A stretch of 64,000 bases of DNA from Escherichia coli (GTDB lineage Bacteria > Pseudomonadota > Gammaproteobacteria > Enterobacterales > Enterobacteriaceae): the NCBI RefSeq assembly GCF_001677475.2, contig NZ_CP015229.1. One strand, 5' to 3'. Every line of letters begins with the position of its first letter. The stretch's first letter is position 1. The notes under the pieces were generated by a model, which saw nothing but the letters and a program-made list of their open reading frames with translations, was not told the DNA's origin and did no database searches. Both the position numbers and the translations under genes were made by a program. Of the stretch, positions 2,310 through 44,255 are shown in pieces.

Positions 2310-4937
2310 TTATTCTTCTTCTGGCTCGTCGTCAACGTCCACTTCCGGAGCGATTTCATCGTCCCCTTCCGCAGCACTGCCGTCGATGGTATCCAGATCT
2401 TCCTCGTCAACCGGTTCAGCAACACGTTGCAGACCCACTACGTTTTCATCTTCCGCAGTACGGATGAGGATCACGCCCTGGGTGTTACGGCCCACGATGC
2501 TGATTTCTGAAACGCGAGTACGTACCAGCGTACCGGCATCGGTGATCATCATGATCTGGTCGCAATCATCTACCTGCACCGCGCCAACCACTAAACCGTT
2601 ACGTTCGGTGACCTTGATGGAGATAACCCCTTTCGTCGCACGTGACTTGGTTGGGTATTCCGCCACTGCGGTACGTTTACCATAACCGTTCTGCGTTGCG
2701 GTGAGGATTGCGCCATCGCCACGAGGCACGATCAGAGAGACGACTTTATCGCCTTCGCCTAAGCGAATACCGCGCACACCTGTGGTATTGCAGCCCATCG
2801 CACGGACAGAAGACTCTTTAAAGCGCACCACTTTACCTTCGGCGGAGAACAGCATTACTTCGTCTTCGCCACTGGTCAGGTCAACGCCGATCAGCTCATC
2901 GCCTTCAACCAGCTTGATCGCCACTTTACCGGCGGTACGCAGACGGTTGAATTCGGTGAGGACGGTTTTCTTCACAGTACCGTTAGCCGTCGCCATGAAG
3001 ACTTTCACGCCTTCTTCAAACTCGGTCACTGGCAGGATCGCGGTGATACGTTCGTCCTGCTCCAGGGGCAGCAGGTTGACGATCGGACGACCACGTGCAC
3101 CACGAGAGGCTTCCGGCAACTGATAGACTTTCATCGAATAGACACGGCCACGGCTGGAGAAGCACAGGATATGGTCGTGGGTGTTCGCCACCAGCAGTCG
3201 GTCGATAAAGTCTTCTTCTTTAATACGTGCGGCAGATTTACCTTTCCCGCCACGACGCTGCGCTTCGTATTCCGAAAGCGGCTGGTACTTCACGTAGCCC
3301 TGGTGAGAGAGCGTCACGACCACATCTTCCTGAGTGATCAGATCTTCCAGGTTGATGTCTGCGCTGTTGGCAGTGATTTCAGTACGACGTTTGTCGCCGA
3401 ACTGTTCACGAACCAGTTCCAGCTCTTCGCGGATCACTTCCATCAGACGATCGGCGCTACCCAGAATACGCAGCAGTTCCGCGATCTGATCCAGCAGCTC
3501 TTTGTATTCATCGAGCAGTTTTTCGTGCTCAAGGCCGGTCAGTTTCTGCAAACGCAGATCCAGAATTGCCTGAGCTTGCTGTTCGGTCAGGTAGTACAGA
3601 CCGTCACGCACGCCGAACTCTGGCTCCAGCCATTCCGGACGCGCAGCATCGTCACCCGCACGCTCCAGCATCGCGGCAACGTTGCCCAGCTGCCACGGAT
3701 TAGCAACCAGCGCGGTTTTCGCTTCTGCAGGCGTCGGCGCATGACGGATCAGTTCAATGATCGGGTCGATGTTCGCCAGTGCTACGGCTAATGCTTCAAG
3801 GATATGAGCACGATCGCGGGCTTTACGCAGTTCGAAAATGGTACGACGGGTCACCACTTCGCGACGGTGACGGACAAACGCAGCGATAATGTCTTTCAGG
3901 TTCATGATCTTCGGCTGACCATGGTGCAATGCCACCATGTTGATACCGAAAGAAACCTGCAACTGGGTCTGGGAGTAGAGGTTGTTGAGCACCACTTCAC
4001 CGACCGCATCGCGTTTAACTTCAATCACGATGCGCATACCGTCTTTGTCAGACTCGTCACGCAGCGCGCTGATGCCTTCCACGCGTTTTTCTTTTACCAG
4101 TTCCGCAATCTTCTCGATCAGGCGCGCTTTGTTCACCTGATACGGAATTTCGTGGACGATAATGGTTTCACGCCCGGTTTTGGCGTCAACCTCCACTTCA
4201 GCACGGGCGCGGATATATACCTTGCCGCGACCGGTACGGTAAGCTTCTTCAATACCGCGACGACCGTTAATGATTGCCGCCGTCGGGAAGTCCGGCCCCG
4301 GGATGTGTTCCATCAGCCCTTCAATGCTGATGTCTTCATCATCGATATACGCCAGACAACCGTTGATGACTTCCGTCAGGTTGTGCGGCGGGATGTTGGT
4401 TGCCATACCTACGGCGATACCGGAAGAACCGTTCACCAGCAGGTTAGGAATTTTGGTTGGCATGACGTCGGGAATTTTTTCCGTGCCGTCATAGTTATCA
4501 ACGAAATCGACCGTCTCTTTTTCGAGATCGGCCATCAGTTCATGGGCAATTTTCGCCAGACGGATTTCCGTATAACGCATTGCCGCCGCAGAGTCGCCGT
4601 CGATGGAACCGAAGTTACCCTGACCGTCTACCAGCATGTAACGCAGCGAGAATGGCTGCGCCATACGGACGATCGTGTCATAAACCGCCGAGTCACCATG
4701 GGGATGGTATTTACCGATTACGTCACCAACGACACGGGCAGATTTTTTATAGGCTTTGTTCCAGTCATTGCCTAGTACGTTCATGGCGTAAAGTACGCGA
4801 CGGTGTACCGGCTTCAGGCCATCTCGGACATCTGGCAGCGCACGGCCAACAATGACCGACATCGCATAATCCAGATAGGAGCTCTTCAGCTCTTCCTCAA
4901 TGTTGACCGGTGTAATTTCTCTCGCAAGGTCGCTCAT
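2310..4937 (-). CDS. gyrA: DNA gyrase subunit A
   Basis: 875-aa ORF; N-terminus [47 protein letters not shown], active-site Tyr region and acidic C-terminal tail. Confidence 0.97.
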
Positions 4938-12670: not shown

Positions 12671-13801
12671 ATGGCATATACCACCTTTTCACAGACGAAA
12701 AATGATCAGCTCAAAGAACCGATGTTCTTTGGTCAGCCGGTCAACGTGGCTCGCTACGATCAGCAAAAATATGACATCTTCGAAAAGCTGATCGAAAAGC
12801 AGCTCTCTTTCTTCTGGCGTCCGGAAGAAGTTGACGTTTCTCGTGACCGTATCGATTACCAGGCATTGCCTGAACACGAAAAACACATCTTTATCAGCAA
12901 CCTGAAATATCAGACGCTGCTGGACTCAATTCAGGGTCGCAGCCCAAACGTGGCACTGCTGCCGCTGATCTCGATCCCGGAACTGGAGACCTGGGTCGAA
13001 ACCTGGGCGTTCTCAGAAACGATTCATTCCCGTTCCTATACTCATATCATTCGTAATATCGTTAACGATCCGTCTGTTGTCTTTGACGATATCGTCACCA
13101 ACGAGCAGATCCAGAAACGTGCGGAAGGGATCTCCAGCTATTACGATGAACTGATCGAAATGACCAGCTACTGGCATCTGCTGGGCGAAGGCACCCACAC
13201 CGTTAACGGTAAAACCGTAACCGTTAGCCTGCGCGAGCTGAAGAAAAAACTCTATCTCTGCCTGATGAGCGTTAACGCGCTGGAAGCGATCCGCTTCTAC
13301 GTTAGCTTCGCTTGCTCCTTTGCGTTCGCCGAACGCGAACTGATGGAAGGTAACGCCAAAATTATTCGCCTGATTGCCCGCGACGAAGCCCTGCACCTGA
13401 CCGGTACTCAGCATATGCTGAATCTGCTGCGCAGCGGCGCGGATGATCCGGAGATGGCGGAAATTGCCGAAGAATGTAAGCAGGAGTGCTATGACCTGTT
13501 TGTCCAGGCGGCACAGCAAGAGAAAGACTGGGCGGATTATCTGTTCCGTGACGGTTCGATGATTGGTCTGAATAAAGATATTCTCTGCCAGTACGTTGAA
13601 TACATCACCAATATCCGCATGCAGGCAGTCGGTTTGGATCTGCCGTTCCAGACGCGCTCCAACCCGATCCCGTGGATCAACACCTGGTTGGTGTCTGATA
13701 ACGTGCAGGTTGCTCCGCAGGAAGTGGAAGTCAGTTCTTATCTGGTCGGGCAGATTGACGCGGAAGTGGACACCGACGATTTGAGTAACTTCCAGCTCTG
13801 A
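12671..13801 (+). CDS. nrdB: Ribonucleoside-diphosphate reductase 1 beta subunit
   Basis: 376-aa ORF with diiron-tyrosyl radical protein features; immediately downstream of nrdA. Confidence 0.97.
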
Positions 13802-14055
13802 TGGCCCGCGTTACCCTGCGCATCACTGGCACACAACTGCTGTGCCAGGATGAACACCCTTCCCTTCTGGCGGCGCTGGAATCCCACAATGTGGCGGTTG
13901 AGTACCAGTGCCGCGAAGGTTATTGCGGCTCCTGTCGCACCCGACTGGTCGCAGGTCAGGTGGACTGGATTGCCGAACCGTTAGCCTTTATTCAGCCGGG
14001 GGAAATTTTGCCCTGTTGTTGCCGGGCAAAAGGCGATATTGAAATCGAGATGTGA
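13801..14055 (+). CDS. yfaE: 2Fe-2S ferredoxin involved in NrdB cofactor maintenance
   Basis: 84-aa ORF with Cys cluster CREGYCGSC...CCC; start overlaps the nrdB stop. Confidence 0.88.
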   Translation: MARVTLRITGTQLLCQDEHPSLLAALESHNVAVEYQCREGYCGSCRTRLVAGQVDWIAEPLAFIQPGEILPCCCRAKGDIEIEM

Positions 14056-14071
14056 ATTGGTTGTTGTGCCA

Positions 14072-14103
14072 GATACAACGCTTATACGTCTTATCTGGCC
14101 TAC
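14072..14103. terminator. Hairpin between convergent yfaE and inaA (probable bidirectional terminator)
   Basis: Inverted repeat gccagata...tatctggc in the 53-bp convergent gap. Confidence 0.4.
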
Positions 14104-14108
14104 AACGA

Positions 14109-14759
14109 TTACATGGCGTAGTAATACGCTTTCACCTGCTCCCAGTCCGCTTTGGGGATTGGCTCCAGATATTTTTCCAGCTGGCGGAAGTCATGATTAA
14201 TCGCTTTATTGCGACGCAAGCGGCGACGACTTTTCTCCAGGTCAAGAAAACCAGATTCTGCTTTACCTTCTGTTTTCACATAGATATGGCGAACATAACA
14301 ACAGCCATGCTGACGATTAACGCTATGCATTTTCTTAAACGCCAGTGCCACTGCTTTCAACATGGCTTGCCGTACTTCGTCAGAATAAGGCGATACTGCA
14401 TGCTGGGCATACCAGTCAGCAATGCTGATGAACCCCGCCATATCTTCAGTCACCAGCAACGCGCGCCATTCACCCTCAATTTTCACCGCTTCACCAAAAA
14501 CGATCTTCGGCACGATGACACCGGCCCGTTCTAGTTCTTTAATTACCGCAACCTCACGGACAATCGTTGGTCGGCCGAACGGATAACGTACAGAATGAAA
14601 CAGATGATGTGTCATGCGCTTTACATACAGCTTTTTGCCGTTGCGCTCGACGCATTGCACACCGCTCATACCATTACGGCGATAGTTAGGCTCTTCAACC
14701 CAGTCGCCCTCTGTTGCCCACCAGTGATTAAATTCGTCGTACTTTGCTGAAACTGCCAT
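14109..14759 (-). CDS. inaA: Acid-inducible, Mar/Sox/Rob-regulated lipopolysaccharide-kinase-like protein InaA
   Basis: 216-aa ORF MAVSAKYDEFNHWWATEGDWVEEPNYRRNGMSGVQ... ending ...VKAYYYAM. Confidence 0.9.
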   Translation of the reverse strand: MAVSAKYDEFNHWWATEGDWVEEPNYRRNGMSGVQCVERNGKKLYVKRMTHHLFHSVRYPFGRPTIVREVAVIKELERAGVIVPKIVFGEAVKIEGEWRALLVTEDMAGFISIADWYAQHAVSPYSDEVRQAMLKAVALAFKKMHSVNRQHGCCYVRHIYVKTEGKAESGFLDLEKSRRRLRRNKAINHDFRQLEKYLEPIPKADWEQVKAYYYAM

Positions 14760-14973
14760 ACCCTATTGCCTGTCGTTTTTATTAACGACAATGACTATAG
14801 GTGGTTACCTGAGGAAAATCTTAATGAAACGTGTCGTATTAATGAATTTCTTTTGCCGCTACTAGTGTGACACCGCTTTTGCCCTTCATTTGCAGCGCAT
14901 AGATTCCACCAGCCACTACCACTAATAGTGCGCCCAGCAGATAAAATGTGAATTTAATCAGGCGGATACAGCG

Positions 14974-15180
14974 ATGAATTTTATGCGACAGGGATTAGGC
15001 ATCGCCTTATTACCAGAGTTAACGCTGAAAACCATTGCAGGTGAATTGTGTTCCGTTCCTCACGAACCAATCTTCTATCGACAGATTTCGTTGTTGGCTA
15101 AAGAAAAGCCGGTAGAAGGCAGTCCACTGTTTTTACTACAAACGTGTACGGAACAACTCGTGGTGAGTGGAAAAATTTGA
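14974..15180 (+). pseudogene. yfaH: LysR-family regulator fragment (substrate-binding domain C-terminus only)
   Basis: 68-aa ORF ...GLGIALLPELTLK... typical of a LysR-type C-terminal domain; no HTH-encoding N-terminus upstream. Confidence 0.55.
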
Positions 15181-15248
15181 TGTGAGACATGAGATTGATG
15201 ACAAATGTAAGATTGCCTGATTCGCCACACTTAGTTGGCCTGTAGTCT

Positions 15249-15338
15249 TTACCATGCGTAATAATTCGTTTTCACCTGATTTTGGTCCACTTTGTGAATT
15301 AGCGATATATATTTATCCAATTTAGGGAAGTGACAATG
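15249..15338 (-). pseudogene. Decayed 3' remnant of an inaA paralog
   Basis: Minus-strand translation HCHFPKLDKYISLIHKVDQNQVKTNYYAW* aligns with the InaA C-terminus HDFRQLEKYLEPIPKADWEQVKAYYYAM*; DNA also aligns with 14111-14190; an in-frame stop lies just upstream. Confidence 0.5.
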
Positions 15339-15645
15339 ACTCCAGGTAGAAACCGGTATGAAGCGCCCGACTCACTGTCAAAACCGATTGTTGAGAGTAA
15401 TGACACTCCGGCGAACAGTACACAGTTTACTCTGGAGCCATTCTCAATCTGCAAGTGGGATGCCTAATAACTTGTCAGGGAAGTTATCAATATCTGTTTG
15501 TTACTTATTACCGTGTTTATTAACAATAATGATACTTTCTAACATGCGTAAAGGTCTTCGTAATAAAATGAGCTAAATTTGATAGTGAATATATTCTGCA
15601 AAGATTAAATTGTATCTAGTTAACTCACAATACAAGGAATCATTT

Positions 15646-16716
15646 ATGCCAAATACATCTATTCAATTATCTCGCTGTAATATTTTACAAAATAATAAAT
15701 TGCAAACAGCAGAAATTTACAAAGAATCACAACAAACCGCGAAACTTGAGATTTTTTGCAATGAGTTTCTAAAAATATCTCAAAGTAGATTCGGGTTATC
15801 AACCTCAGCAGACAACATAGCTAATTTATTGGCTTTTTTCACGAAAGCCTCAGATGAAATTGATAGTATCAAAACCCAAAAAATTGACGTTCACAGTTAT
15901 GGTTTCGTACCAATAAGACATTTTGTCGAGCATGTCATAACGTATAAAAATGAATTTGCAGAAGATTATGAACCCTATACCCTTACCTTTACCCGAGGTG
16001 AAAACAACGAAGGTGTTTTGAGTATCGAAAGCAAAGAAGGGTTTCTTTCAGAAAGAACAATAAATTTAAATGAATATGAAACTGCAATTAACATCATCAA
16101 TGAGCATGTTGCAAAAGAAAATATCAATAACAAGATCCAAACATTGACAGACAAAGACACACCAAAAATAACCAACTCTGACAAAATTTATAAATTTATC
16201 CACGAGTTAAATATAAGAACTCAACTTTACAGCAAGCAAAAAGAATATACAGACCTGCTACTACATTCTGAGAAAAATACAGAATGGTACAAATACACAT
16301 CCTCCGAGGAACGCTATGATGTATTTAAGAATTCTTCTAAAAAAATTGAAAATACCTACAAGCAAATTGTGCAAGCGCAGAAAAAATTGAAGCAAATGAA
16401 ATACATCAATAAATTAAGTGGTGAGCTTATCGATATCGCCGACAAAAAGTTAGCACCATTAATAAATGATAGTTTCAGCTATACACGAGATTTCTTTGCT
16501 TACTCAAAAAATGAAAAAAATATCTTCACATTTGATAATTCTAAGTTTTTAGATCCAAAGGAAAAAGAAGGTTTAATGATACAACACAGCAATGGGCAAC
16601 TGGTTATTACTGGTAAATATTGCCCTGAAGGTATGCAAACAGCATTCACCCAAGAACAATATGATAAATTAATAAGATACATTAATATTTTCTTTACTTT
16701 CCAGAAATGCGAATAA
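15646..16716 (+). CDS. Hypothetical protein, AT-rich orphan, Lys/Asn/Glu/Ile/Tyr-rich, no signal peptide or TM segment
   Basis: Long intact ORF in a visibly AT-rich segment; ATG at 15646 preceded by AAGGAA (ORF-track start 15610 is TTG); no family recognised. Confidence 0.6.
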   Translation: MPNTSIQLSRCNILQNNKLQTAEIYKESQQTAKLEIFCNEFLKISQSRFGLSTSADNIANLLAFFTKASDEIDSIKTQKIDVHSYGFVPIRHFVEHVITYKNEFAEDYEPYTLTFTRGENNEGVLSIESKEGFLSERTINLNEYETAINIINEHVAKENINNKIQTLTDKDTPKITNSDKIYKFIHELNIRTQLYSKQKEYTDLLLHSEKNTEWYKYTSSEERYDVFKNSSKKIENTYKQIVQAQKKLKQMKYINKLSGELIDIADKKLAPLINDSFSYTRDFFAYSKNEKNIFTFDNSKFLDPKEKEGLMIQHSNGQLVITGKYCPEGMQTAFTQEQYDKLIRYINIFFTFQKCE

Positions 16717-16903
16717 TACTGTACATTATAAACTGCATTACAATTTATTATTGAGCCCTATTCATACTGTTTAAAGAATAACAATACCCAGTGTTAGCTT
16801 TCCTAACAAATGAGTTTTACGCAAATATGTTGGCATCTTTTTTAACAGGATGCTCAGGTGAATGAATAGAATAACCGGTAGTAGCATTATTTCGCTTTAG
16901 CTG

Positions 16904-16927
16904 AGGATGGCGCATGAACGCCATCCT
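16904..16927. terminator. Hairpin downstream of glpQ (end of glpTQ operon)
   Basis: Inverted repeat aggatggcg/cgccatcct just 3' of the glpQ stop; weak T-run. Confidence 0.4.
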
Positions 16928-16936
16928 GCAGTAGCA

Positions 16937-18013
16937 TTACTCTTTATTAAGGAATTTTACTGCCTTATCAGGGAAATCAGTAAACAGCCCATTTACACCC
17001 GCTTTGTCATACAGAACATCATATAACTGATTCACATCAGTAGTGTATTCAGGCAGTTTATCTGACCGCACGGTATAAGGATGCACTACCAGTTTATTCT
17101 GCTGAGCATCTTGCACCATGCCAGTGAGTTTGATATTACCCGGCTGCGATGTCTCCTCAATCAACATATGGTAATCCGGGCCAATACCATCTGCATATTC
17201 CGCCACCTGTTTCATGGCACCCGGCTTAAACATCCAGTCGTAGTTGTAATTAACCCAGCTTCCGTCCGGCTGTTTCTGCTGCGTTTCATTCCAGTCGGTA
17301 TAGGCAATCAGCTGTACCAGATTGAGATCCATGCCCATTTTAGGTTCCAGCTCATTCTTAATACGCTTCAGCTCATCAGCATCAAAACATTGTAAATAAA
17401 CTTTGTCGTCCTTACCGGTGTAACCATATTTCTTCAGCACTTCCAGCGTTTTTGCCGCAATATCCTTCCCTTCCTGATGATGGAACCACGGTGCTTTAAT
17501 TTCTGGATAGATACCGATATTTTTCCCGGTAGAGTGATTTAACCCCTGAACAAATTCAATCTCTTCTTCAAAGGTGTGCACCCGGAAGTCGGACTTACCC
17601 ATTGGGAAACGCCCCGGATAAGTCTGCACTTTTTTACCGTTTTCAATATCGAAACCTTCGGTAAATTTCAGCGACTTAATTTCATCCAGCGTGAAATCTA
17701 TCGCGTAGTAACGACCGTCTTTGCGCGCCCGATCCGGGAAACGATCGGCAACATCAGTAACACGATCGAGGTAATGGTCATGCAGAACAACCAGATGGTC
17801 GTCTTTGGTCATCACCAAATCCTGTTCCAGATAATCCGCTCCCTGCGCATACGCCATCGCTTTTGCTGGCAGCGTATGCTCCGGCAAATATCCACTGGCA
17901 CCGCGATGGGCGATGACTATTTTTTCGTTGCTGTCCGCCGCCATTGCACTGCTTCCCATGACTATAGTGCTCATCATGATCGCCATGCTAAGGTTTTTCA
18001 GCGTCAATTTCAT
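16937..18013 (-). CDS. glpQ: Periplasmic glycerophosphodiester phosphodiesterase
   Basis: Start MKLTLKNLSMAIMMSTIVMGSSAMA (signal peptide), HRG catalytic motif; start trimmed from ORF-track 18070 to 18013. Confidence 0.95.
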   Translation of the reverse strand: MKLTLKNLSMAIMMSTIVMGSSAMAADSNEKIVIAHRGASGYLPEHTLPAKAMAYAQGADYLEQDLVMTKDDHLVVLHDHYLDRVTDVADRFPDRARKDGRYYAIDFTLDEIKSLKFTEGFDIENGKKVQTYPGRFPMGKSDFRVHTFEEEIEFVQGLNHSTGKNIGIYPEIKAPWFHHQEGKDIAAKTLEVLKKYGYTGKDDKVYLQCFDADELKRIKNELEPKMGMDLNLVQLIAYTDWNETQQKQPDGSWVNYNYDWMFKPGAMKQVAEYADGIGPDYHMLIEETSQPGNIKLTGMVQDAQQNKLVVHPYTVRSDKLPEYTTDVNQLYDVLYDKAGVNGLFTDFPDKAVKFLNKE

Positions 18014-39941: not shown

Positions 39942-40201
39942 GTTTTCCCTGCCGCTGTACACTGCCGTTCCCACTCATCGGGGCTATAACTGCTTGCCGA
40001 GAGGACTTTAACCGTATGCAGCTTTTCACGATTAATACAGTAAAGGGCATTCTGCAAAGGCGAGAGTAAATCCCCCACTTTCACGGCGAAGTCACTCTTC
40101 ACTTCGGCGATCATTTTTATCGCGCCGCCAGCATCGCAGAGCATAAGTACATGTCTGTTATCTTGTTTATTGCAGCACGATTTTTTGACCAGCCATTCCA
40201 T
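39935..40201 (-). CDS. pmrD: Signal-transduction connector protein PmrD
   Basis: Start [30 protein letters not shown]...; 88 aa. Confidence 0.85.
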
Positions 40202-40310
40202 TGCATTATCCTGTTTGCTAAGAGTTTTCACATCAATTTACAGATTAACAGATAAACTCTTTATCAACGGCAATGGAATGGCAGAAATGAGAAGTGAAAC
40301 GGATGGTTAA

Positions 40311-41666
40311 TTATTGCTGGCGTTGCACCCACTCTTTTAGCGCCTGACGTGAAATTTTAATACCACCGTTTTTCAGTTCAGGTGGAAGCGTCAGCCAACG
40401 CACCGGTTGTTGAAAACGGGCCAGCTTATCTTTCACCCATTCGCCAAGATCAACGGTTTGCTGGTCATACTCCACCACCGCTACCGGTCGATGACCAAAC
40501 TCCTTGTCGGCAACGGGAACGATAAACACCTGCAAAACCGCAGGATGTGCAGCAATAACGCGCTCGACTTCTTCTGGCTGAATGCCTTCGCCACCACTGA
40601 AGAACAGATTGTCTAAACGTCCGACAATGGTCAGCTTGCCATTATGCATCTCACCGCGATCGCGCGTGGCGTACCAGCCTTCGTCATTAACCAGTGGAAC
40701 CAGTTGCCCGTTACGCCAGTAACCTTCTGCCATGCTGGCAGCCCGCAGCCACACTTCGTCGTTTACGATTTTCACTTCCCGACCCGGCAGCGGCGAACCG
40801 ACGTCTGCCAGACCGTCGGCTTCTTTCGCACACACCGTGGAGGCAAACTCGGTCAGACCATAGCCGCAAAAGCAACGAATCCCCTGCTCGCGCGCCTGTT
40901 CCGTCAACTCGACCGGAATTGCCGCACCGCCAAGTAACACCGCTTTCAGGGAAACGGAACTGCGGTTAACCAGCAAACGCCAGAGTTGTGTTGGCACCAG
41001 TGAAGCGTGAGTACAGCCTGCCAGCATTTGCTCCAATGGCTGTTTATCACGTACCGTCATCCGCGCACCAGCGTATAACCAGCGCCACATAATTCCCTGA
41101 CCGGAGACGTGAAACAGCGGTAAAGAGAGCAACCAGTCATCGTGCTCGCCAAACGGTATCAGCGATAACACACCTTGCGCACTGGCAAGATGGGCCTGAT
41201 AAGTATGAACAGCGGCTTTCGGCAAACCGGTAGAGCCGGAGGTCAACGTCATTGAGCACAGACGCGTCGGCTGCCACGCAGCGGCATGTGCGCCTTCAAC
41301 CAGCTGAATGTGCAGCGACGTTAACGCCGGAAACGTGTTTTCCCCATCCGGCACCAGCGCAAATTGCAGCGTCAGATTGGGCAGCAATTCTTCAAGCAAC
41401 GGTTGCGGCAGCTGAGGGTTCACGGGCAACACCCGCGCCCCGCATTGCAGTAACGCCAGCCAGGCGAGCAGCGTTTGCGGCGTATTCCACGCCCGCAACA
41501 TCACGCCGCTGCCCTCAACCACACCCTGCGCCGCAAAGCCGGAGGCTAATTCATCGACGCGAGCACAAAGCTCGCGCCAGTTGAGTTGCTCGTCATTAAG
41601 ACGTAAGGCGATGGCTTCTCCCCGCACTTGCCGCCAGTGACGCCACGGCCAGTCAGAGAAGATCAT
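40311..41666 (-). CDS. menE: o-Succinylbenzoate--CoA ligase
   Basis: 451-aa adenylate-forming enzyme with TSGSTGLPK motif. Confidence 0.93.
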
Positions 41667-42625
41667 AACAACCGCTCCAGTGCATCAACTTCCACGACAG
41701 GCAGCGTGCTACCCGGCCAGCGACGTACCTGCTGCGCCTGCATCAGATCCAGCGTGTCCAGCCCTGGAATGGTGTCCGGCGTTAACCAGGCGGCAATCCG
41801 CGCCAGTTGCGTTAAGCCTAAGCTCGATTCAATGGAAGAACTGATCACCGCCGTCAGCCCCACCGCGTGCGCCGCCTGTACCTGCTCGCGTACTTTTTCC
41901 AGACTGCCCGTGAGCGTGGGTTTGATAACTACCGCGCGCACGCCCTCTTCAGCCACAAAGGCAAAATCCGGCTCGCGCAGGCTTTCATCCCAGGCAATGG
42001 CAATGCCGGTTTCACGGGCAAACGCTCGCGAATCATCGCGGGTTTTGCACGGCTCTTCGAGAAACGCGATGCGGTCGCGATAATCCGGGTTAACGTATTT
42101 GGCAAACTGCTGACCTTTCAGCGGTGTCCAGGCGCGATTTGCGTCAAGACGCAAATGCAGATCCGGAATTGCCTCCAGCAACAGATTCACCACCATGCCG
42201 TCGCGCACCGCTTCGTACAATCCCACTTTGACCTTCGCCACTTTCTCGCCAGGCATATCGGCAAGTTTGAGGATCAGATCGTCCGGATCGCCATTACACA
42301 GTGGTGCCGTACGGTAATTGGCCGCCTGCGGGAGCGTATCTGCCAGCTCCGCCAATGCACAGCTTACGCCAAAGGCGACGGAAGGCAGCTGCGGTAATTC
42401 GCAATCGCCTGCCAGCCAGTTATTTACCCAGGCAAGCAGCACACTTTGCGCCTCTTCCCAGGTTTCCTGACTGAAGCCCGGCAGTGGGGAGATCTCCCCC
42501 CACCCTTCGCGCTCGCCTTCACGCAGGCAAACATACAGCCCGTCGCGGGTTTTTAACCGCCTGTCGCGCAGAACCACCCCCGCGTCCATGGGGATCTGCC
42601 AGCGGTATACCTGCGCGCTACGCAT
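41663..42625 (-). CDS. menC: o-Succinylbenzoate synthase
   Basis: 320-aa enolase-superfamily ORF, overlapping menE. Confidence 0.93.
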
Positions 42626-43482
42626 TACGGATTCCGTTTAAATTTGCTGAAATCAGGCTGACGTTTCTGGTTGAAGGCGTTGCGACCTTCCTGACCTTCT
42701 TCCGTCATGTAGAACAGCATGGTGGCGTTGCCCGCCAGCTCCTGCAGACCTGCCTGACCGTCACAGTCGGCGTTCAGTGCAGCTTTCAGGCAGCGCAGCG
42801 CCATCGGGCTGTTTTGCAGCATTTCGCGGCACCAACGGACGGTTTCTTTTTCCAGATCCGCCAGCGGTACCACGGTGTTCACAAGGCCCATATCCAGCGC
42901 CTGTTTTGCGTCGTACTGACGGCACAGGAACCAGATTTCACGCGCTTTTTTCTGTCCGACGATGCGAGCCATGTAGGAAGCGCCCCAGCCGCCGTCGAAG
43001 GAACCGACTTTCGGGCCAGTCTGACCGAAGATGGCATTATCTGCCGCGATAGTCAGGTCGCACATCATGTGCAGAACGTGACCGCCGCCGATGGAGTAGC
43101 CAGCCACCATCGCGACAACCGGTTTCGGACAGGTACGGATCTGACGCTGGAAGTCCAGCACGTTCAGGTGATGTACGCCGGAATCATCTTTATAGCCGCC
43201 GTAATCACCACGCACTTTCTGGTCACCACCGGAGCAGAACGCTTTATCGCCTGCGCCAGTCAGAATGATCACCCCGACATTATCGTCATAACGCGCATCT
43301 GCCAGTGCCTGGATCATCTCTTTTACCGTCAGAGGACGGAAGGCATTGCGCACCTGCGGACGATTAATGGTGATTTTTGCGATACCGTCGGTGGATTTTT
43401 CATAACGAATGTCCTCAAAGCCTTCGGAGCAGTCGTGCCATTCAACCGGTGCGTAAAGCATTGCTTCATCAGGATAAATCAT
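42625..43482 (-). CDS. menB: 1,4-dihydroxy-2-naphthoyl-CoA synthase
   Basis: 285-aa crotonase-fold [33 protein letters not shown]... Confidence 0.95.
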
Positions 43483-43496
43483 ATTGTGTCCTTTAG

Positions 43497-44255
43497 TCAG
43501 AAACGCAAGATCTGCGCCAGACTTGCGATTACGCCAGCGGGATTTTCCCGGTGCGCGTTATGTCCGGCGCGAGGAATGACATGGCAGTCGGCAGCCAGTT
43601 CCGTCGCCAGGGCGCGGAATTTGCTGTCACGTTCACCACATAAATAATAAAACGCAAATGTGCGGGCGCTAAGGTTAGCACGTAAATCAGGCTGAACGGC
43701 GAGAGAAGTCGCCTCCAGCATGGCGGCAAGGGTTGCGCCATTATTGTTGCTGCGCAGCGCCACCAGCTCCCGGCGTTGATCGTCATTGAGTGAGGCAAAA
43801 ACAGGCTGTTGATACCAGTCGGCAAATACCGCCGTTAACGGTTCTGTGAGAAAACGCTGCACCCATTGGCGATCGGAACGCTGACGTTCCGCACGTTGTT
43901 CAGCATTTTGCAGCCCCGGATGCCCGCCTTCGACAACAACCCCACAAAGCCCCGCCAGCCCCTGGCAAGCCGCCATCATCGCCACCCGTCCGCCAAGCGA
44001 GTACCCCACCAGCCAGAAGTCAAGGATGTTGTAACTAACCAAGGTTTTACGCAGTAAGTCGGTGACATCATCAAATCCATCGACGCTAATCGCCGCCGAA
44101 CCACCGTGACCTGGGAGATCAACATACAACCGTGAGTAGTCGGCAAACACCTCGCCCACTTCTTGCCATTCATGGCAATCGCCGGAAAAACCGTGCAAAA
44201 ACACCAGCCAGGGTAAACCTGGTTTACCGTGTTTTGCCTGCGCGTGCAGGATCAT
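43497..44255 (-). CDS. menH: 2-succinyl-6-hydroxy-2,4-cyclohexadiene-1-carboxylate synthase
   Basis: 252-aa alpha/beta-hydrolase ORF with GYSLGGR nucleophile elbow. Confidence 0.9.

Follow-up and report, generated by a model that had tools for sequence, protein, structure and literature searches.

The window, that is, the whole stretch of 64,000 nucleotides of the Escherichia coli contig NZ_CP015229.1 that was analysed, has the gene order nrdA-nrdB-yfaE-inaA-yfaH-(insert)-glpQ-glpT. The subject of this analysis is yfaH, a short open reading frame (ORF) flanked by inaA and glpQ, both of which run on the other strand (Table 1). The left neighbour is named inaA in the annotation of K-12 and of further strains. 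The first-pass annotation of this DNA had described about 68 codons of a LysR-type substrate-binding domain in frame at this place, and the ORF list of the window confirmed a frame of exactly 68 codons running from an ATG to a TGA. In E. coli K-12 MG1655, the collinear 207-nt ORF in the inaA/glpQ interval is annotated as the pseudogene yfaH, b2238, and in other RefSeq genomes PGAP labels the yfaH ORF as "LysR family transcriptional regulator" or "LysR substrate-binding domain-containing protein" with the remark "incomplete; missing N-terminus". The reading of the ORF as a C-terminal fragment of a LysR-type regulator is therefore correct and was already known. K-12 yfaH and its counterpart in the window agree in their position between inaA and glpQ, the 207-nt ORF, the deletion junction described below and five substitutions next to that junction. 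They differ by about 4% in nucleotide sequence, the changes I>M, L>H and T>I being specific to the window, and while the K-12 ORF lies 42 bp from glpQ, that of the window is separated from glpQ by an insert of 1.7 kb.

Table 1. Features of the inaA-glpQ interval, in coordinates of the window, with the basis of each assignment.
Feature	Position	Strand	Basis
inaA (lipopolysaccharide kinase family), intact left neighbour, 216 aa	14109..14759	-	ORF list; PF06293, E=9e-77
inaA upstream intergenic region	14760..14838		Collinear with the 80 bp between inaA and the MFS gene in intact genomes; 37% G+C
MFS transporter gene 3′ remnant, last 34 codons (363-396 of 396) and stop	14839..14943	-	tblastn
Deletion junction, single CAGATAAA copy, 8-bp microhomology	14938..14945		BLAST overlap; octamer positions; in-silico deletion
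LysR-type regulator gene 3′ remnant, residues 214-292 and stop	14941..15180	+	tblastn; alignment to six intact alleles
Five-substitution cluster (14948, 14961, 14962, 14976, 14978)	14948..14978	+	Deletion versus intact alleles
68-codon ORF (ATG to TGA, 68 aa) = K-12 pseudogene yfaH (b2238)	14974..15180	+	ORF list; collinear K-12 annotation; NCBIfam NF007272
A+T-rich segment absent from K-12, context of yfaH and not part of it	15193..16903		K-12 alignment breaks at 15192/16904
inaA-like C-terminal tail, 25 aa	15255..15329	-	13/25 identical
Orphan ORF, 368 aa, 31% G+C	15610..16716	+	ORF list

A Pfam search with the 68-aa ORF alone gave a sub-threshold match to LysR_substrate (E=0.11, 12.3 bits versus a cut-off of 28), and therefore the homology was shown by way of an intact orthologue and of NCBIfam. 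The NCBIfam family NF007272/PRK09729, which is 68 positions long and which we take to be a model of E. coli YfaH, matched the ORF over positions 1-68 of 68 with 153.1 bits, the curated cut-off being 139. A tblastn search of the window with the full-length LysR protein of strain HZ13 placed residues 214-290 at 14941-15171 on the plus strand (79% identity over 77 aa, E=6e-35). The homology begins 33 nt upstream of the ATG, in a frame that is open from position 14929, and a full-length gene is not recovered with any alternative start, as had been stated before. The earlier observation that the N-terminus encoding the helix-turn-helix is missing was borne out as well, since residues 1-213 left no trace anywhere in the 64-kb window at E≤10, and the DNA-binding family HTH_1 (PF00126) had no match in the ORF when Pfam was searched. 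What survives is the end of the effector-binding domain only. In a functional LysR-type regulator (LTTR) this domain would be complete (PF03466, about 209 positions); the Pfam match of the ORF covers only profile positions 145-187. Residues 214-292 are only the final part of a two-lobed effector domain without the DNA-binding part, and for this reason neither independent folding nor regulation would be expected of them.

The space upstream of the fragment had been assigned to the inaA promoter region. This held for the 79 nt next to inaA, which are retained in intact and deleted alleles alike, and failed for the remainder up to 14943, which turned out to be the end of a gene for a transporter of the major facilitator type (MFS) on the minus strand. 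With the MFS protein as the query, tblastn aligned residues 363-396 at 14943-14842 (-) with 91% identity (E=8e-13), followed by a stop codon at 14841-14839; the translation of the tail ends with LLGALLVVVAGGIYALQMKGKSGVTLVAAKEIH and the stop. In other strains, PGAP attaches the remark "incomplete; missing N-terminus" to the corresponding 105 nt as well. For annotators, this means that the 105 nt labelled "hypothetical protein" beside yfaH are the MFS tail left by the same deletion. A consensus scan of 14650-15700 for sigma-70 promoters and terminators found none, a result below the count in shuffled sequences. A match to the Mar/Sox/Rob box consensus lies upstream of inaA at 14819-14837 (-), but at three mismatches this search yielded 134 matches versus 141 expected and is not discriminating. 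An Rfam scan of 13800-17200 at E≤1 found no RNA family.

In E. coli HZ13, O157:H7 Vac_07.1 and MMC-J-0091, the slot between inaA and glpQ is occupied by both complete genes, an MFS transporter of 396 aa on the minus strand and a LysR-type regulator of 292-299 aa on the plus strand, which are divergent and have their starts 151-164 bp apart. Pfam assigned the transporter to MFS_1 and found HTH_1 at residues 3-63 and LysR_substrate at residues 88-267 of the regulator (profile positions 2-188, 124.9 bits). Residues 214-292 of the O157:H7 regulator (WP_000176738.1, 292 aa) and residues 363-396 of the O157:H7 transporter (WP_000660231.1, 396 aa) align with the two remnants of the window, which in comparison with this pair is devoid of MFS residues 1-362 and LysR residues 1-213 as well as of the 151-bp promoter region between the two divergent genes. 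A LysR-type regulator gene divergent from its neighbour is the typical layout of a regulator and its target. The intact orthologue shares the N-terminal helix-turn-helix, the LysR substrate-binding domain and the divergently transcribed neighbour with the characterised LTTRs GltC, CidR, AlsR, CynR and HcaR. However, it scored far under their equivalog cut-offs (for example, 129 versus 350 for GltC and 119 versus 277 for CynR). Neither the intact LysR nor the intact MFS protein reached any NCBIfam equivalog cut-off, and therefore both are uncharacterised.

A wider search for the intact regulator, in one genome per species, found it, together with the adjoining MFS gene, immediately following nrdB-yfaE(-inaA) in Escherichia sp. 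MOD1-EC7003, Escherichia sp. E1V33, E. whittamii, Kluyvera georgiana, Kluyvera genomosp. 3 and a Pseudocitrobacter metagenome-assembled genome. Because the pair is syntenic in Escherichia species, Kluyvera and Pseudocitrobacter, it represents the ancestral state of this site, from which the fragment is derived. In Kluyvera genomosp. 3 YDC799 (locus L014, 3193-4067), a frameshift at about codon 59-60 interrupts the orthologous LysR gene, so that this regulator has also been inactivated independently in a genus other than Escherichia. Within E. coli, LysR alleles that are highly divergent occur side by side, which is suggestive of import by recombination: the HZ13 LysR gene has a 3′ end (locus L003, 10135-10358) with only 75% DNA identity to window positions 14941-15164 and to the O157-type alleles, as against about 96.6% for the flanking inaA and MFS tail.

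The point at which the two remnants meet was mapped by aligning the window with the O157 allele (locus L004). The nucleotide alignment consists of two collinear blocks that overlap at 14933-14945. In the O157-type allele, CAGATAAA is found twice at a distance of 1,879 bp: the first octamer (2126-2133) belongs to the MFS gene and the second (4005-4012) to the LysR gene. The window has a single copy. The repeat at the junction can be extended to 11 matches in 13 bp. In-silico removal of the 1,879 bp between the O157 octamers yields the junction of the window save for point differences, and the alignment of K-12 with the window is identical through the junction. Comparison with intact genomes had been suggested, besides a TBLASTN search to map frameshifts or deletions; what it brought out was a single deletion of 1,879 bp, and frameshifts had no part in it.

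We propose that the ancestral locus had nrdB-yfaE-inaA followed by the MFS gene (-), the divergent LysR gene (+) and glpQ, and that a single deletion of 1,879 bp took place between the CAGATAAA copies, located at about codon 362 of the MFS gene and codons 213-215 of the LysR gene. The event took out MFS codons 1-362 and the 151 bp of divergent promoter region. From the LysR gene it removed codons 1 to about 213, which encode the entire winged helix-turn-helix and the greater part of the effector-binding domain. The anatomy of the junction points to slipped misalignment or illegitimate recombination at the 8-bp repeat as the mechanism. The lost LysR protein probably regulated the adjacent MFS gene. 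The remnant, predicted to be unable to bind DNA or to form a complete effector domain, has drifted neutrally since the deletion, which seems to have arisen once and is now the majority allele of E. coli.

The evolution of the remnant was assessed over the shared 79 codons in a small sample of nine deletion alleles (six distinct remnant sequences) and six intact alleles. The intact alleles showed 29 nonsynonymous and 57 synonymous variants, a ratio of about 0.15, and are under constraint. The remnants, in contrast, showed 15 nonsynonymous and four synonymous variants on 182:55 sites, a ratio of about 1.1, and that of GF153 carries an additional frameshift. A ratio near 1.1 together with a tolerated frameshift is the signature of a neutrally evolving pseudogene, and the neutral pattern since the deletion argues against a present function of yfaH. 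Taken at the level of sequence comparison, the 68-codon ORF is, with a probability of about 95%, what it is already known as, namely yfaH, the non-functional 3′ end of a LysR-type regulator gene.

The distribution of fixed differences between the nine deletion and the six intact alleles does not fit drift alone in every respect. These differences are exactly the five positions of the cluster in Table 1, which lie within 38 nt of the junction and are followed by 199 nt without a fixed difference; with random placement, we calculated a chance of about 1e-4 for all five to fall in the first 38 of 237 nt. All five changes are nonsynonymous (Y>C, H>Q, P>A/S, I>M and S>N), and the residues that they hit (YEFNHP) are conserved out to Kluyvera and Pseudocitrobacter. 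The cluster is non-random, and simple neutral drift does not predict such clustering. It was absent from the intact alleles, both from the six that were aligned directly and from the 1,117 genomes reached by a chimeric probe, in which the intact upstream sequence was joined to the cluster and which matched 1,117 of 5,426 genomes over at least 80% of its length; its best full-length match was 96.5%, equal to five mismatches. A gene-conversion patch was also considered and rejected, as blastn with a 51-nt query at E≤10 found the yfaH/LysR locus alone in E. coli genomes, with a median of one place per genome. That the cluster records mutagenic, error-prone or templated repair accompanying the deletion, or else a short-lived selection through which an ATG and a weak ribosome-binding site came into being and a 68-aa LysR C-terminal peptide was temporarily expressed, is a conjecture to which we give a small chance.

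A further step would be exaptation, in which a burst of substitutions after the deletion built a start codon and a ribosome-binding site and the C-terminal LysR peptide is expressed as a small protein. The position and kind of the substitutions would agree with it: all five are specific to the remnant and close to the junction, none of the intact alleles reached in the 5,426-genome search has the cluster, the change 14976 C>G (ATC>ATG) makes the start codon of the yfaH ORF, and a CC>GG change strengthens the computed anti-Shine-Dalgarno pairing from -3.3 to -5.8 kcal/mol. A common variant has GT instead of GG, though, and forfeits this gain. Exaptation is also opposed by the nearly neutral variation of the remnants, by the occurrence of at least one frameshifted allele and by the incompleteness of the fragment, which corresponds to part of a two-lobed domain. 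The published mentions of yfaH divide in the same manner. In a transcriptome table, yfaH is listed with a 7.7-fold change in one CpxR comparison (PMC9600279), which indicates that the region is transcribed and does not by itself imply a function, and in K-12 the gene was replaced by a resistance marker and used purely as a neutral linked site (PMC2714960). A literature search for "yfaH" returned these incidental mentions only, the marker site and the single row of an expression table. Taken together, exaptation appears very improbable.

Two other histories of the fragment have next to no probability. Decay in place by frameshifts and nonsense mutations is a common route, and the frameshift near codon 59-60 in the Kluyvera genomosp. 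3 orthologue provides an instance for this very gene, but it would have left a degraded N-terminal half upstream, where instead LysR residues 1-213 were untraceable and the sequence lines up with the inaA spacer and MFS 3′ end found in intact genomes; the mapping of the breakpoint led us to reject it. That the fragment is a partial gene at the edge of a horizontally imported segment rather than the remnant of a resident gene might be suspected in an interval that is A+T-rich, structurally variable and directly followed by a foreign-looking insert of 1.7 kb, but it is contradicted by the synteny of the full MFS-LysR pair after nrdB-yfaE(-inaA) across several Escherichia species, Kluyvera and Pseudocitrobacter, by the location of both deletion endpoints within resident genes and by K-12, which carries yfaH without the insert, and was rejected too.

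The deletion between the CAGATAAA copies remains the preferred reading, and what the present analysis adds to the known pseudogene is descriptive: the remnant is tied to an ancestral gene pair in which a LysR protein presumably regulated an MFS transporter, the truncation of both genes is traced to one microhomology deletion of 1,879 bp, and the frequencies of the alleles are given for 5,426 complete E. coli genomes. A 201-nt junction probe, required to match over at least 80% of its length in one piece, found the junction in 3,130 genomes (58%). The deleted 1.8-kb segment was present in 1,217-1,233 genomes (about 22%), which have kept the intact pair, and in 1,064 (about 20%) neither side of the junction probe was matched. 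The exact 27-nt junction pattern had no match among the GTDB species representatives. The significance of yfaH itself is small.

The description of the surroundings as a zone of gene decay and replacement agrees with the diversity of the interval, for which at least five structural forms were found in E. coli, and with the inaA-like tail and the 31% G+C orphan ORF in the insert that K-12 does not have. In LI60C3, the inaA-glpQ gap is about 200 bp long and consists of 20 nt of the MFS 3′ end followed by a 70-bp filler (locus L006, 2161-2230) that is unrelated to the MFS and LysR genes. This is a second, separate loss allele, and, judged from their match pattern, Nissle-type strains apparently share it. 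Further derived forms have an IS5 insertion in the MFS gene, an IS1 element within the interval (strain S1-IVC-02-A), or an IS1 directly upstream of inaA with the interval through glpQ absent and nudI next. The several distinct loss forms indicate that the MFS-LysR pair was lost repeatedly and by different routes. The interval is thus a clean example of the recurrent loss of a dispensable regulator/transporter pair, and it can serve as a convenient multi-allelic marker.

The A+T-rich 1.7-kb insert downstream of yfaH was found in about 1,044 of the 5,426 genomes; E. whittamii and E1V33 are without it. The form of the window, with the deletion and the insert downstream of yfaH, was present in 335 genomes (6%). 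The insert accompanies the intact LysR gene (O157) as well as the deletion (the window and strain 2013C-4282), which indicates recombination between the forms. Near its yfaH-proximal end, the insert encodes an inaA-like tail, FPKLDKYISLIHKVDQNQVKTNYYA followed by W and a stop located exactly at the end of InaA. The similarity had an E value of 0.012 when searched against the window and 4e-4 against 2 kb, and the tail looks like the end of a second inaA-like gene that would have been lost. The orphan ORF found no family match in Pfam, NCBIfam, PADLOC or PHROGs. In O157:H7, a version of 356 aa is annotated as a hypothetical protein, and in strain 2013C-4282 the ORF is frameshifted.

Two observations concern the genomes themselves. 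In the two regions that were compared, 14700-17000 and 40000-44000, the window is at most about 98% identical to any of the 5,426 complete E. coli genomes, the core men genes included, and 91-94.5% identical to other Escherichia species. It probably stems from a divergent E. coli-like lineage that has no representative among these genomes. A contig of 3.5 kb deposited as "MAG: Collinsella sp." (JAIJJM010000334.1, locus L008) carries the O157-type MFS and LysR genes, the orphan ORF and the end of glpQ with 93-99% protein identity, and is almost certainly a wrongly binned Escherichia contig.
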